From positions 13,457 to 77,456 of the forward strand of contig JBIRBM010000005.1 of NCBI GenBank assembly GCA_044326545.1: a stretch of 64,000 nucleotides of DNA, written 5' to 3'. Both the position numbers and the translations under genes were made by a program. This document shows positions 2,829-62,617 of the stretch, piece after piece (within the stretch, counting starts at the first letter, position 1; each line of letters opens with the position of its first letter). The stretch is from Parachlamydiaceae bacterium (GTDB lineage: Bacteria; Chlamydiota; Chlamydiia; Chlamydiales; Parachlamydiaceae). A model generated the notes under the pieces. That model did no database searches and had not been told where the DNA came from. It worked only from the letters and a program-made list of their open reading frames with translations.

Positions 2829-2898
2829 TCACTCATCTTACGCACTCACCTTGCCCACTAGGAGTGCGATTTGGGCTCAAGCGAAAGCTCAAATCGCA
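2829..2898. repeat. Family A palindromic repeat (A1)
   Basis: ...CATCTTACGCACTCACCTTGCCCACTAGGAGTGCGATTTGGGCTCAAGCGAAAGCTCAAATCGCA, directly after the REC gene stop. Confidence 0.6.
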
Positions 2899-2971
2899 TG
2901 TGATGTGTTGAAAATGAGATAAGATGTGCAGAGGAATCCATCATTTCTGCCACATAGGGAGTTCGAAGCAG

Positions 2972-4207
2972 TTATTCAGCGACAGCAATTTTTGAGTCTT
3001 TCTTCTCTACTTTAGTCGATGTTTTTGAAATCAATAGAACGAGAAATCCAGCTGTCCCTATACAGAGGGCGAAAGGGATCACATAAATTCCATAAATCAG
3101 TGCTTTAGATTCACTCGCTCCTCCCATCGCACTAATTGTTCCTCCAATGATCGTATGGAAAGCATAACCGAAAATCATGATAATCATGTTAGCCACAGCT
3201 GTGGTCAGTCCTGCGACTTTTTCTGAGACATACGTAGAGGCTTGAAAAATAGCTAAGATTTGATAGGCTGAGCATACTCCCACTAAAACAAAACACAGAC
3301 TTAGCATGCTTGGAGGTAACTGCCAGAGTAACATTGCAAAAAAACTGATGGCCATTACAGCTCCGGCAGCGATAATCGTCGCTAAATAACTGCCAACCTT
3401 TTCAGCAATTAGACTAAGAACCGGGGCTCCAAAGCACATTCCAATAAAAATCATTGAAGGAAGACTTGAGGCAAGAGCTCCTTCGTAGCCATAAACTTGT
3501 TTTAAAAATGGATTCCCCCAGACATCTGCAAAACCTTCTAATGGCCCAACCATTAAGCCTGCAAAAAAGCAAGTGCCTATTACTCGACGATTGCATAAGA
3601 CCTCTTTGATATCAGCAAAAACCGGAACCTGAGATGATGCTTTCATATCAGGCACAATCCAGTAGGTGGCAATGGCGAGTATGAGACCGATGATAACGAA
3701 TAATTCAATAACAGCATCATATCCCCAAATGTCGCGCATATAACTCACAGGCCCCCCTCCATAAATGGCGCCAATTAAGCCAATCGTGACAGAGAAACTT
3801 AACATTCTAGGAAAGAGTTCTTCACTAAATGTCATTCGAATAATCTTAAAAACGCCTAAAATAGCGGCTGAAGATCCCATTCCGAGTAGTAATCTTCCCC
3901 CTATCGGATAAATCCAATAATGAGAAAAAATTAAAGGGAGTAATCCTGCCACTGAAAGAAGAATGCAGCCACTCATCACCTTTCGAGGTCCAAATCGGTC
4001 CAGCATGATGCCAATTGGTAGATGCATAAGAGAATAGCCGATGTAATAAATGCCTGAAAATTGACCGAAGGTCGCAGCATCAATTTGGAATTGCTGCATA
4101 ATATCATCTAGCATAATGCTAGGCATGACTCTTAAAATATACTGGTAGGCATAAAAGATAGAGGCGATAATCCATACCATCCAAGCAACCATTCGTGTAG
4201 AAGACAT
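2972..4207 (-). CDS. MFS transporter
   Basis: Multi-span hydrophobic protein with an MFS-like loop GIMLDRFGPRKV. Start moved to ATG 4205-4207 (MSSTRMVAW...) because the 49 upstream codons of the long ORF are encoded by palindromic repeat C1. Confidence 0.8.
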   Translation of the reverse strand: MSSTRMVAWMVWIIASIFYAYQYILRVMPSIMLDDIMQQFQIDAATFGQFSGIYYIGYSLMHLPIGIMLDRFGPRKVMSGCILLSVAGLLPLIFSHYWIYPIGGRLLLGMGSSAAILGVFKIIRMTFSEELFPRMLSFSVTIGLIGAIYGGGPVSYMRDIWGYDAVIELFVIIGLILAIATYWIVPDMKASSQVPVFADIKEVLCNRRVIGTCFFAGLMVGPLEGFADVWGNPFLKQVYGYEGALASSLPSMIFIGMCFGAPVLSLIAEKVGSYLATIIAAGAVMAISFFAMLLWQLPPSMLSLCFVLVGVCSAYQILAIFQASTYVSEKVAGLTTAVANMIIMIFGYAFHTIIGGTISAMGGASESKALIYGIYVIPFALCIGTAGFLVLLISKTSTKVEKKDSKIAVAE

Positions 4208-4263
4208 ATTTGATCCGCTTTTTGATTTAATAAAAAGATCCCTTGAATTTTTGTTTTTATCAT

Positions 4264-4349
4264 TAGACGTCTTCGGAAACTTGCTTTGCTTGAAAAAATT
4301 GCCATTTTTGGCATCTTTTTCAAGCAAAGCAAGTTTCCGAAGACGTCTA
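4264..4349. mobile_element. Family C palindromic element, short form (C1, 86 bp)
   Basis: TAGACGTCTTCGGAAACTTGCTTTGCTTGAAAAAATTGCCATTTTTGGCATCTTTTTCAAGCAAAGCAAGTTTCCGAAGACGTCTA. Near-perfect 35-bp arms. Confidence 0.85.
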
Positions 4350-4573
4350 TTCACTTTAACGCGAAAAAGGGCGAAGCAATTGATTCAAAAAGTTCAATTT
4401 TTCCAAGCCAATCGAATGATGCGATAAGTCTAATATTGAAAGCATTTTTGAATGAATCTTTTGCGCAAGATGAATTTGTAATTGGCAATTATTATATAAA
4501 ATAAATTAGATTATGTCTAGGTGTGTTTTTTTTTGTTAATTAACGCGATGTGAAGGATGGAAGAATATGCGAT

Positions 4574-4699
4574 TAAAATCTGTTCAATCGAAAATTTTAA
4601 ATCGATTTTAAAAGGGCGTCTAAAAAATTAATTCGAGTGTAAGAGCATGTGTGGAAAGTCTCATTCCGCTTGCATTCAAGATGTTGAACAGGTTCTTAG
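4574..4699. mobile_element. Family B MITE-like element, diverged (B0)
   Basis: Left end TAAAATCTGTTCAATCGAAAATT; right end CAAGATGTTGAACAGGTTCTTAG. Confidence 0.5.
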
Positions 4700-4734
4700 A
4701 CTTTTCAGAGACGTTCTAAAGCTGAGGGTTTACG

Positions 4735-4769
4735 AGTACGCGATGTCAATTTCAATGACATGGCGTACT
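4735..4769 (-). terminator. Possible terminator hairpin downstream of the 4789-5508 gene
   Basis: AGTACGCGATGTCA, 7-nt loop, TGACATGGCGTACT (14-bp stem, 1 mismatch), 20 nt past the stop. No clear U-tract, hence the low confidence. Confidence 0.3.
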
Positions 4770-61644: not shown

Positions 61645-61679
61645 CAATTGTTGTGGTGAAATGAAACGTGTATTAAAAG

Positions 61680-61740
61680 ACTCACCTTACGCACCAAGAT
61701 TGCGATTTGGGTTGAAGCCAAAGCTCTCTTGGTGCGTAAG
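61680..61740. repeat. Family A repeat, complete (A11)
   Basis: ACTCACCTTACGCACCAAGATTGCGATTTGGGTTGAAGCCAAAGCTCTCTTGGTGCGTAAG, then a family B arm. Confidence 0.8.
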
Positions 61741-61761
61741 AACCTGTTCAAAATCTTTCTG
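61737..61761. repeat. Family B left arm (B16)
   Basis: TAAGAACCTGTTCAAAATCTTTCTG. Supplies the stop and last codons of the 61748-62338 gene. Confidence 0.6.
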
Positions 61762-62338
61762 AAAACTCAATGGAGTCTAAAAAACGGGCATAAACATCGT
61801 GATCAAATTCGGTGTCCGACGCTATGTAAAAAGCTGTATATAGGGTTTTATCAGTCATTTGAGCGATGCCCTCCAATCTTTTCAAGGTGTGCTGATCGAA
61901 GAAGGTAAATTGAAAGGAACCGGTATCTTTTTCTTCTTGGGATTGAGTGAATTGAAAATCATAGGTTTGATGATTTTTGAATATCGAGGGATTAAAAAAG
62001 AAATAAGGAGCTAAAATGGTTTCAAAAAAGACTCTGAGAGACTCTTTTTGTAATCCCGATTGGTGAAAGGTCGCAGAGGTAAAACAGCTCAAAGCGAAAA
62101 GTCCATTTGATGTTGGGGTAGAATAAAGACGTAACTGCCCTTTGGGAGGAGTGTTTTGAAATGGGGTGTCGATATTCATCTCAATAGGGTGGTGCGGAAG
62201 CTTCGCTCGCAGGCCGCTTTCCCGATCTACGAAGCTGACCCACTCAAATGAAAGAGGGGAGTGTGAATGATTGGCCATAAGACCTTTATTGAAAAAAAAT
62301 GATAGCCCTAATATAAGAATTCCTGAATACGTTTTCAT
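61748..62338 (-). CDS. Secreted hypothetical protein
   Basis: Signal-peptide-like MKTYSGILILGLSFFFNKGLMA. No family recognised. The last codons and stop lie in a family B repeat arm. Confidence 0.5.
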   Translation of the reverse strand: MKTYSGILILGLSFFFNKGLMANHSHSPLSFEWVSFVDRESGLRAKLPHHPIEMNIDTPFQNTPPKGQLRLYSTPTSNGLFALSCFTSATFHQSGLQKESLRVFFETILAPYFFFNPSIFKNHQTYDFQFTQSQEEKDTGSFQFTFFDQHTLKRLEGIAQMTDKTLYTAFYIASDTEFDHDVYARFLDSIEFSERF

Positions 62339-62363
62339 CCTACCCTCTATTTGATTAAAAGAT

Positions 62364-62440
62364 CACTCGAATTTTTGAGTGCGATTTGGGCTGAGCCCAA
62401 ATCGCACTGCCGGTGCTTAAGGTCTGTTTGTAAGGTGAGT
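62364..62440. repeat. Family A repeat (A12)
   Basis: CACTCGAATTTTTGAGTGCGATTTGGGCTGAGCCCAAATCGCACTGCCGGTGCTTAAGG...TAAGGTGAGT. Confidence 0.7.
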
Positions 62441-62573
62441 TCCTTAACAAACTCTTTACAAACGAGTTTAATTTGAATGATTTTGAAAGTAAACTAAAAT
62501 CATTTTTTTATTTGTTAAACTATTTTTTTAATTTTAATTATTCGAATTGGAAAACGAATGTTTTAACCGTCAG

Positions 62574-62617
62574 AGATTTGGCTTCAGCCCAAATCGCTCT
62601 CTTGGTGGGTAAAGTGA
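62574..62617. repeat. Family A repeat (A13)
   Basis: GATTTGGCTTCAGCCCAAATCGCTCTCTTGGTGGGTAAAGTGAG. Confidence 0.6.

Follow-up and report, generated by a model that had tools for sequence, protein, structure and literature searches.

What are the palindromic repeats that fill the space between genes in the Parachlamydiaceae bacterium of GenBank assembly GCA_044326545.1, and how did they get there? The question is raised by a 64,000-nt stretch of contig JBIRBM010000005.1 (positions 13,457 to 77,456 of the forward strand; hereafter the window, with positions counted from its first letter), in which a first-pass annotation made from the letters alone had described two modular repeats, A and B. 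We find that the window contains no fewer than seven palindromic families, A and B among them. Probably, these families are non-autonomous foldback elements similar to MITEs (miniature transposable elements with inverted repeats) that use TTA or TAA as target and are largely fossil in this genome.

Both repeats are dispersed in many copies, at frequencies far above chance. With up to three mismatches allowed, a 29-mer of A has 4 matches in the window and a 24-mer of B has 7, against 0 expected from shuffled sequence in either case. Looser matching returns 25 hits for the A outer arm (null 1.7), 14 for the A inner arm (null 1.5), 12 for the B terminus (null 0.7) and 7 for the internal B2 module (null 0). 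Profile searches with nhmmer, completed by inspection, yield 19 A and 20 B pieces with 2,357 nt in total (Table 1), in fair agreement with the roughly 15 and 20 copies first counted by eye. Their mostly intergenic location, also claimed at that stage, holds: the spacers between genes, 16% of the window, hold all 39 pieces, except where a piece runs a few codons into the 3′ end of a gene. A or B occupies 25 of the 45 spacers (8/11 convergent, 12/23 tandem and 5/11 divergent), and several spacers harbor two or three abutting elements each, a clustering like that of bacterial interspersed mosaic elements (BIMEs). Intra-window repeats of any kind cover 31% of intergenic bases vs 3.9% of coding bases, the coding share being almost entirely due to the internal repeats of a DUF4116 protein and to one paralogous gene fragment.

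A measures 33-106 nt and B 27-170 nt, within the MITE size range (under ~300 bp), and neither contains an open reading frame (ORF). Complete B copies present the terminal repeat (T)WAGAACCTGTTCAGAATCTTTGATC at both ends and the A arms read ACTCACCTTACGCAC, so that copies of a family share terminal inverted repeats (TIRs). They are accompanied by five or more other palindromic families (C to G and some besides); inverted termini are TWA-GAACCTGTTCAGAATC for B, GGGCGTGTCATCAATTG for E and GACGTCTTCGGAAAC for C. The orientation of B is balanced (7 on the plus and 6 on the minus strand) in a window where GC skew keeps one sign, pointing to a single replichore, and the count relative to flanking genes that had been proposed as a check gives a mixed picture (about three same and four opposite in our own tally). 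A scan of the window against Rfam returned 0 matches at the gathering score and no tRNAs, and plasmid and viral collections gave no match to the repeats, in line with the earlier remark that the sequences were not recognised.

The original shape of B can be recognized with the help of another organism. A metagenome scan with a 17-mer of the B terminus returned 102 loci, almost all of them single and scattered as chance predicts, with genuine B copies in five contigs, all from JGI metagenome Ga0172380. Three of these (L095, L131 and L135) carry a complete ~168-nt B at the contig end, 95-98% identical to one another; one further contig has the 49-nt form and another a solo end. The flanks are unrelated to the window, hence the copies belong to a different organism. 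A complete B is one long imperfect palindrome in four parts: the 26-nt terminal repeat, an arm segment CGATGATTTGTTTGCTAAAAT with its imperfect complement ATTTATAGCAGCAAAGCATCG on the other side, an inner palindrome GCTATAAACTCACAAAAAATTTTCG and a small loop that closes the structure. Folded as single-stranded DNA it reaches -64.3 kcal/mol (z = -19). The window copies are 60-86% identical to this Ga0172380 master and 44-72% identical to each other, and such star-like divergence is the pattern of independent decay after amplification from one source.

The size series of B with constant termini is present where it had been described: 27 nt (39001), 49 nt (28589, 34857), 107 nt (11062) and 155-170 nt (11619, 33568), along with further diverged full-length copies at 35080, 38401 and 49954. 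The first-pass annotation had taken the long forms as short ones with added modules; the reverse relation fits better. The internal modules never occur outside B in the window and, given that the complete element is a ~168-nt palindrome, they are the body of the master, the most intact copies being ~168-nt foldbacks and the short ones probably deletions. An orthologous B located between an 84-aa gene and the DHDPS gene measures 170 nt in the window and ~75 nt in the related species L050, whose ABC transporter is 82% identical to that of the window; both of its flanks are homologous (CTTTCC-TTA-GAGCC on one side, CGCAATG.CTAAAA on the other). Since short forms keep their termini and this ortholog is long here and short in L050, deletion is the better reading, and the 27/49/107/155-170 nt series would best be accounted for by an unstable palindrome losing sequence from its centre outwards.

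Folding supports the hairpins, including the two-tier structure claimed for A: z-scores for the A and B hairpins range from -2.6 to -19. Computed against mononucleotide shuffles, 39 spacers have a mean z of -3.09 with 16/39 below -3, vs -0.70 and 0/39 in length-matched coding segments. In an RNAalifold analysis of nine aligned B copies, 52 pairs are predicted, 86.9% of cells are paired and 21 pairs show compensatory double changes, vs 10.7 +/- 2.1 in column shuffles (0/500 reach 21) and 6-12 when partners are slid by 1-3 columns. The standout compensations are CTCAC>CCGGT with GTGAG>GCCGG at 33568 and the joint change of both terminal repeats at 49954. The test is inflated, as the structure was derived from the same sequences and the copies are related, and still the gap to the slid controls is large. 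Covariation of this kind reflects either selection on the hairpin or correction of one arm against the other. It cannot be extended to A, where few copies are intact and arm differences are mostly uncompensated. An excess of G-T over A-C mismatches on one B strand (35 vs 13 overall) was considered as a test for an RNA strand and set aside as weak, being confined to copies in one orientation and confounded with mutation bias.

The ends of the elements point to a common target. In complete B copies a T(T/A)A triplet flanks GA(A/G)CC...GG(T/C)TC at either end, and families C and E, also starting with G, lie between T(T/A)A flanks as well. Among 13 complete elements, a small sample, seven have identical 3-bp flanks: TTA/TTA in L131 and at 11062, and TAA/TAA in L109, at 33568, 34857 and 49954, and in the second E copy. 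Three others have TTA on one side vs TAA on the other, and the last three differ by one base. Taken alone, these flanks fit a 3-bp duplication and a palindromic terminus alike.

The clearest case is a nested one. The A consensus contains a single TTA (ACTCACC-TTA-CGCACC), and at 11056-11175 a B sits exactly there with TTA on both sides, other A copies providing the paralogous empty site. The same triplet of A is the point of contact with B in two more cases, at 61735 and, outside the window, at L161:5665, and an A is nested at the centre of the short B-like palindrome 49508-49606. The chimeric copies reported earlier do exist, at 27982-28072 and 44085-44190. Recombination between modules, by which they had been explained, was rejected in view of the three B-A junctions at one triplet, and composites are mostly explained by insertion into or beside existing elements at TTA/TAA followed by truncation. 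This accounts only in part for two of the junctions, at 28039 and 44176; there, the ACTCAC common to A and inner B may have mediated illegitimate recombination.

Layered palindromes are also seen in a related 3.1-Mb genome (L051), where positions 3315-4212 form a ~900-bp palindrome of several nested layers. Its outer arms resemble those of A, and the direct repeat TAGTA (5 bp) lies on either side. About 1.6 kb away is a pair of genes for TnpB and an IS607-like resolvase (L051 1-1698).

A target of this kind bears on the relation to stop codons. The repeats had been said to start directly at the stops of proS, glmS, the REC gene and the GNAT gene, which is exact for the first two only: a B opens with the TAA of proS and a B terminal repeat with that of glmS, while A starts 6 nt after the TGA of the REC gene and the GNAT gene has its TAG within a family E element, with B next after it. 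The TAG of gene 39024-39680 likewise overlaps a 27-nt B. ProRS ends at its conserved terminal Tyr, with the Pfam C-terminal domain aligned through its last position. As an insertion at TAA would regenerate the stop and be harmless, purifying selection would leave it in place, and a TAA/TTA target preference with duplication would explain the pattern. Elsewhere the repeats have entered the coding sequence. The last 12 residues of PlsX (KTHLTHRECDLD) and its TGA stop are A sequence (32386-32425, minus strand), PlsX homologues having unrelated variable tails after ...IKQQLA; a 98%-identical PlsX (P0121), probably from another strain, has the same tail with two substitutions. Similarly, a 196-aa protein of unknown function (61748-62338, minus strand) takes about its last four codons and its TGA from the B fragment 61737-61760, itself inserted in the right-arm TAA of an A.

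Comparison with relatives shows sites without elements. The position of the proS stop is conserved, and in L159/L160 (86% identical) the same last residue is followed by TAA and then by unrelated sequence. L158 (84% identical) is syntenic with the window and compact: the stop of the next gene comes 8 nt past that of proS, vs 230 nt of composite elements in the window, and the rpmF-plsX spacer measures 63 nt vs 343 nt in the window, where it holds B and family F. Both sites are thus empty in related species. B or fragments of it are found in at least four organisms, namely those of the window, of L050, of L158 (a single perfect match of 22 nt to the terminal repeat within 21.5 kb) and of Ga0172380. 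In a collection of species-representative genomes that does not include the source genome, the B-terminus 17-mer has 46 matches, single and scattered over unrelated phyla at about the chance level, and is multi-copy nowhere; the one match in a Chlamydiae metagenome-assembled genome (MAG) falls within apparent coding sequence.

Four contigs from independent samples end in the same B, 36 nt past the proS stop, and carry no polymorphism information; L047 ends at 11080 and 21832. That short-read contigs of several samples break off inside B implies that the terminal repeat is multi-copy in the genome. The window copies can be read as mostly old and those of the Ga0172380 organism as young. The spacer between the ABC transporter and DUF4116 genes is 42 nt in the window and in L050 (4565-5097) consists of 533 nt of GC-rich nested palindromes of different families (e.g., GCACCCCTCTTCGGGGGTGC). 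It thus seems that the palindromic family expanded at a given junction varies from species to species.

We propose the following course of events. Each element is a long imperfect palindrome, with a B master of ~168 nt forming a hairpin of ~80 bp. Copies would be inserted at TTA/TAA, with duplication of the triplet, by a transposase that acts in trans and whose gene lies outside the 72 kb covered. Insertions would survive only where harmless and so pile up at or just after TAA/TAG stops, with the duplicated triplet restoring the stop; those into the TTA of resident elements would give nested and abutting composites. The long palindromes would tend to lose their centres, which would leave a size series with constant termini, and the copies would decay independently. 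Most copies here would then be old and probably immobile, a few having been absorbed as stop codons or short C-terminal tails.

Several observations weigh against this account. The autonomous partner that defines a MITE was not found in ~72 kb of this genome: Pfam detects no transposase, integrase or Y1/RAYT domain in the ~50 ORFs of the window, in accordance with the first-pass annotation, and no transposase is seen in the 8.3 kb past the right edge (Logan contig) or beside the B copies of other organisms. With only 7/13 identical flanks, a general 3-bp duplication would rest mainly on the one nested case, and TTA on one side with TAA on the other, as in three elements, is also what a terminal inverted repeat gives. 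No element is gained or lost among strains 99.3-100% identical over 10.7 kb, substitutions falling inside the elements; in L047 and L049 (99.3-99.6% identity) the only differences are substitutions plus two indels of 1 nt, with no evidence of recent movement. One B has been kept at the same site since two species diverged (the 82% identity of the ABC transporter given above). Compensatory changes along the whole stem are unexpected if only transposase-binding ends matter, and point to an additional constraint or to arm-to-arm correction. Evidence is also weaker for A, with few intact copies, mostly uncompensated arm differences and variable spacing of the flanking TTA/TAA. As for the enzyme, we suspect a DDE transposase of the IS5/PIF-Harbinger type, which makes 3-bp duplications, a tentative lead suggested by the apparent 3-bp duplication together with the G-start termini.

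Could the elements instead be functional signals, kept by selection on structure? As folded RNA they might mark 3′ ends or sites of processing (being cut by RNase III/E, stabilising mRNA or terminating transcription in the absence of a U-tract), and as DNA they might be hairpins to which proteins bind. The strong covariation, the copy retained at an orthologous site across species, the highest occupancy in convergent spacers and, weakly, the G-T over A-C excess would fit. However, copies also occupy 5/11 divergent (promoter) spacers, lie in mixed orientation relative to flanking genes, are in many cases truncated halves or solo ends, and are absent at the same gene junctions in related species, while star-like decay of copies away from a master betrays amplification rather than conserved sites. 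They also lack a T-run; a terminator scan of 1-20 kb found 21 vs 18.2 expected, thus no enrichment, and intrinsic terminators were rejected as an identity for A and B because the scan calls neither of them and only the centre of family C. As a general explanation we hold this to be unlikely, though it can apply to a subset of copies beside the transposition proposed above, and the covariation and the retained ortholog would be consistent with a role of certain copies in the processing or stability of RNA. A second candidate is the system of repetitive extragenic palindromic (REP) sequences and their hairpin-forming doublets (REPINs), short extragenic palindromes, often in inverted doublets and BIME-like mosaics, spread by a domesticated single-copy HUH/Y1 transposase, the REP-associated tyrosine transposase (RAYT). 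Our elements are indeed extragenic, palindromic, clustered and abutting, their stems co-vary, each A arm has a small REP-like palindrome (CGCAC-CAGGA-GTGCG) so that two arms make an inverted doublet, and a single RAYT gene elsewhere in the genome would fit with the lack of a transposase nearby. The hallmark of REPs is an imperfect palindrome of 20-40 nt with GTAG or CGTC at its foot (PMC3733652). By contrast, GTAG is absent from the A and B consensus and CGTC occurs only internally in some A arms, the 168-nt foldback of B is far above that size, triplet flanks resembling duplications are not produced by RAYT/IS200-type chemistry, and no Y1_Tnp domain was found in ~72 kb (by Pfam in the window ORFs, with none called in L161). 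Of the two likenesses proposed at first, REP/BIME or MITE, the former fits less well, given the lack of the tag, the ~80-nt arms and the duplication-like flanks; a REP/REPIN origin seems to us quite improbable.

Two accounts based on single-stranded DNA deserve even less credit. Palindrome-associated transposable elements (PATEs) derived from IS200/IS605 move as single strands, with insertion on the 3′ side of a short target (TTAC, for instance). Hairpins are central to their structure, as they are here, TTAC is present in the A arm and TTGAT in the terminal repeat of B, known targets of IS608 and ISDra2, and the related genome L051 has an IS607/TnpB element. Such elements, however, have two different subterminal hairpins and no TIRs, whereas A and B are single whole-length foldbacks with TIRs; they make no duplication, vs the triplet flanks found here; a strong replication orientation is expected of them, vs the balanced B on one replichore; and Pfam found no Y1 transposase in the ~50 window ORFs. 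We regard a PATE origin as extremely unlikely. Alternatively, rather than ordinary DDE-mobilised MITEs, the elements could be self-contained foldbacks, functional as whole-length hairpins and moved or copied as single-stranded hairpins by an enzyme not recognised as a transposase, with TTA/TAA triplets as target, among them stop codons and the TTA that hairpins of other elements expose, and with some copies kept as structured transcript punctuation. This would explain the whole-stem compensation, the nesting and the lack of a matching transposase, and we give it a small chance. On balance, foldback MITE-like elements inserted at TTA/TAA by a transposase acting in trans are the reading we retain.

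Several described systems come close. One is that of the Correia elements (CREE/NEMIS) of Neisseria, intergenic MITE-like foldbacks of ~100-160 nt with TIRs, internal-deletion variants and a TA-containing AT-rich target, often near gene ends, whose transcripts would form long double-stranded hairpins and whose host lacks a known autonomous partner. The likeness lies in size, TIRs, deletion variants, an AT-rich target including TA, gene-end positions, the hairpins predicted for transcripts and the missing partner; the differences are the host phylum, the absence of sequence similarity, a TIR of 26 bp vs ~80 bp here, where it spans nearly the entire element, and duplication of TA vs TTA/TAA triplets here. 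Rickettsia palindromic elements (RPEs) are likewise palindromic repeats of an obligate intracellular bacterium with some copies read as protein, but they are typically in frame inside genes, whereas here only 3′-terminal overlaps occur and the bulk is intergenic, and the sequences are unrelated. With REP/BIME/REPIN-RAYT systems of proteobacteria the common features are mosaics of extragenic palindromes, inverted doublets and compensatory stem changes; here the GTAG/CGTC tag is lacking, RAYT was not found, the elements are much longer and the triplet flanks resemble duplications. Tourist/PIF-Harbinger and IS5 elements (IS1031, IS427 and ISL2 groups) prefer TWA and have G-start termini. Our families resemble them in the 3-bp TTA/TAA flanks and G-start termini (GAACC/GAGCC, GGGCG, GACGTC). 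Duplications of 3 bp are made by canonical Harbinger elements, which are relatives of the IS5 family (PMC12730594). No such transposase was found here, and a whole-length foldback is atypical of those MITEs. Several unrelated small palindromic families per genome, nested and with hairpin-preserving compensatory changes, are also known from cyanobacteria (Nezha, and the SDRs of Nostoc); the Nostoc SDRs are 21-27 nt long vs the ~170 nt reached here, and sequences and host differ.

Table 1. Palindromic repeat elements located in the window, by family.
Family	Position	Strand	Form and context
A	2831..2898	+	duplicated left outer arm and inner hairpin, right outer arm missing; starts 6 nt past REC gene stop
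A	11056..11066	+	left outer arm (CACTCTCCTTA), split off from remaining A by B insertion
A	11168..11205	+	remainder beyond B insertion (TTA CGCAAC...GTGCGATGTGG...)
A	16071..16136	+	full 66-nt two-tier hairpin
A	19300..19314	-	solo right arm
A	22153..22188	-	right arm
A	28039..28072	.	short 34-nt form, joined to B via common ACTCAC
A	31367..31402	-	half copy
A	32378..32421	-	deleted form; codes for plsX stop and last 12 codons
A	34728..34742	-	solo right arm
A	38362..38394	.	short 33-nt form between direct repeats TAATC
A	42434..42539	+	106-nt form with extra internal palindrome
A	44176..44190	-	right arm, fused to B half
A	49524..49590	+	full 67 nt, nested in palindrome 49508..49606
A	52064..52098	.	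short 35-nt form
A	54252..54297	-	inner part, abuts B
A	61680..61739	+	nearly full; B interrupts its right-arm TAA
A	62377..62440	-	inner hairpin and duplicated right arms
A	62567..62619	-	single-outer-arm copy
B	4685..4698	-	solo 14-nt terminus
B	11062..11171	+	107-nt internal-deletion form in A's TTA, TTA both sides
B	11619..11789	+	full length, 170 nt; L050 ortholog ~75 nt
B	15760..15785	+	solo terminal repeat, 8 nt past epimerase stop
B	17396..17419	+	terminal-repeat fragment in 42-nt gap between two convergent stop codons
B	21909..21982	+	left half
B	27982..28044	-	arm-2 half; first 3 bases = proS TAA stop
B	28589..28634	+	short 49-nt form
B	32342..32378	.	short form ~37 nt, abuts A at TTA
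B	33568..33722	+	full length, 155 nt, compensatory CTCAC>CCGGT / GTGAG>GCCGG
B	34857..34906	+	short 49-nt form, TAA both sides
B	35080..35244	-	full length, diverged (60% identity to master)
B	38401..38543	-	nearly full length, diverged
B	39001..39028	.	minimal 27-nt form; right terminus overlaps TAG stop of gene 39024-39680
B	44085..44168	-	half copy
B	47533..47563	+	solo terminal repeat; first 3 bases = glmS TAA stop
B	49954..50123	-	full length, diverged subfamily, both terminal repeats changed together
B	51629..51685	+	arm-2 end
B	54295..54361	-	half copy
B	61737..61758	+	solo terminal repeat; gives gene 61748-62338 its TGA stop and last codons
C	4264..4349	.	86-nt perfect foldback (TTA, then GACGTCTTCGG...); z -18.8; centre terminator-like on both strands
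C	53997..54095	+	left part of long form
C	54901..55063	.	163-nt long form
E	21797..21911	+	115-nt foldback, terminal repeat GGGCRTGTCATCAATTG; overlaps GNAT gene TAG stop
E	47745..47855	-	second copy (87 nt, 97% identical to first), TAA both sides
F	33450..33552	.	103-nt palindrome in rpmF-plsX spacer
G	34762..34830	.	palindrome
Further palindrome	47627..47746	.	120 nt (47-nt arms, 85% complementary)
Short B-like palindrome	49508..49606	.	AGAGACTGTCTTAAA arms, A nested at centre

Other palindromes deserve mention beside the tabulated ones. The centre of family C, AAAAAATTGCCATTTTTGGCATCTTTTT (4300-4313, with its core repeated at 54030-54043 and 54934-54947), matches an intrinsic terminator on both strands, C being the only repeat family with such a match in the scanned 1-20 kb. 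A hairpin at 9924-9981 (GATCGTAAGTGGGGCG...CCCACTTACGATC), between a convergent glycogen phosphorylase-like gene and gene 9982-10983, has a close counterpart at ~11690-11800 of L157 (GATCGCAAGTGGGTC...GACCCACTTGCGATC), within a nested palindrome downstream of proS in this related MAG, which suggests a further family common to the species.

By its encoded proteins, the window comes from an uncultured Parachlamydiaceae bacterium close to Protochlamydia: its ABC transporter and ProRS are 100% identical to NCBI proteins of a Parachlamydiaceae MAG, the next ProRS relatives being 81-86% identical with named Protochlamydia species among them. The gene content is ordinary chlamydial housekeeping (ATP/ADP translocase, LpxB, RNase E/G, PcnB, FtsY, SucCD, glmS, proS). 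The protein encoded at 16253-17377 has at least nine DUF4116 repeats of 25 residues (75-nt period; Pfam E = 2.7e-122), and 11 of the 36 between-strain substitutions of the 10.7-kb comparison fall in its gene. A 132-aa ORF (38556-38954) with ~40 nt upstream is a duplicate, 64% identical (38513-38941 vs 59527-59951), of the 5′ region and N-terminal TIG-domain part of a 692-aa TIG/PKD/beta-propeller protein (59566-61644). On the minus strand, ORF 48753-49166 encodes 137 aa with a hydrophobic signal-peptide-like N-terminus, then GGGGGH repeats and a Tyr/Gly-rich tail; the protein has no Pfam match and its DNA contains short tandem repeats (48942-49070). A run of nine Gs (AGAGGGGGGGGGACGAG, 54170-54185), in the 533-nt spacer upstream of a PI3/PI4-kinase-like gene, could be a slippage-prone tract. 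Upstream of proS in L157, the chorismate-binding and class IV aminotransferase genes are broken into short fragments (725-1729 and 3789-4139) and appear to be pseudogenes; their window equivalents (23677-25122 and 25613-26425, respectively) are intact.

Our search of the open-access literature brought up no account of REP- or MITE-like repeats for Parachlamydiaceae, and the repeats of the window are apparently undescribed, although elements of this kind are well known from Neisseria, Rickettsia, enterobacteria and cyanobacteria. Chlamydiae are usually called poor in mobile DNA; in this environmental lineage repeats account for about one third of the DNA between genes. They bring long hairpins into untranslated regions next to housekeeping genes and have rewritten gene ends, as in the PlsX tail, the final codons and stop of 61748-62338 and the bases that form and immediately follow the proS and glmS stops. 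They interrupt short-read assemblies, as with the four independent contigs that stop in the same B, and call for caution with gene callers, since spurious ORFs and extended starts overlap them. Conversely, they provide markers for strain typing and contig binning, and an entry point to a transposase once active in amoeba symbionts.

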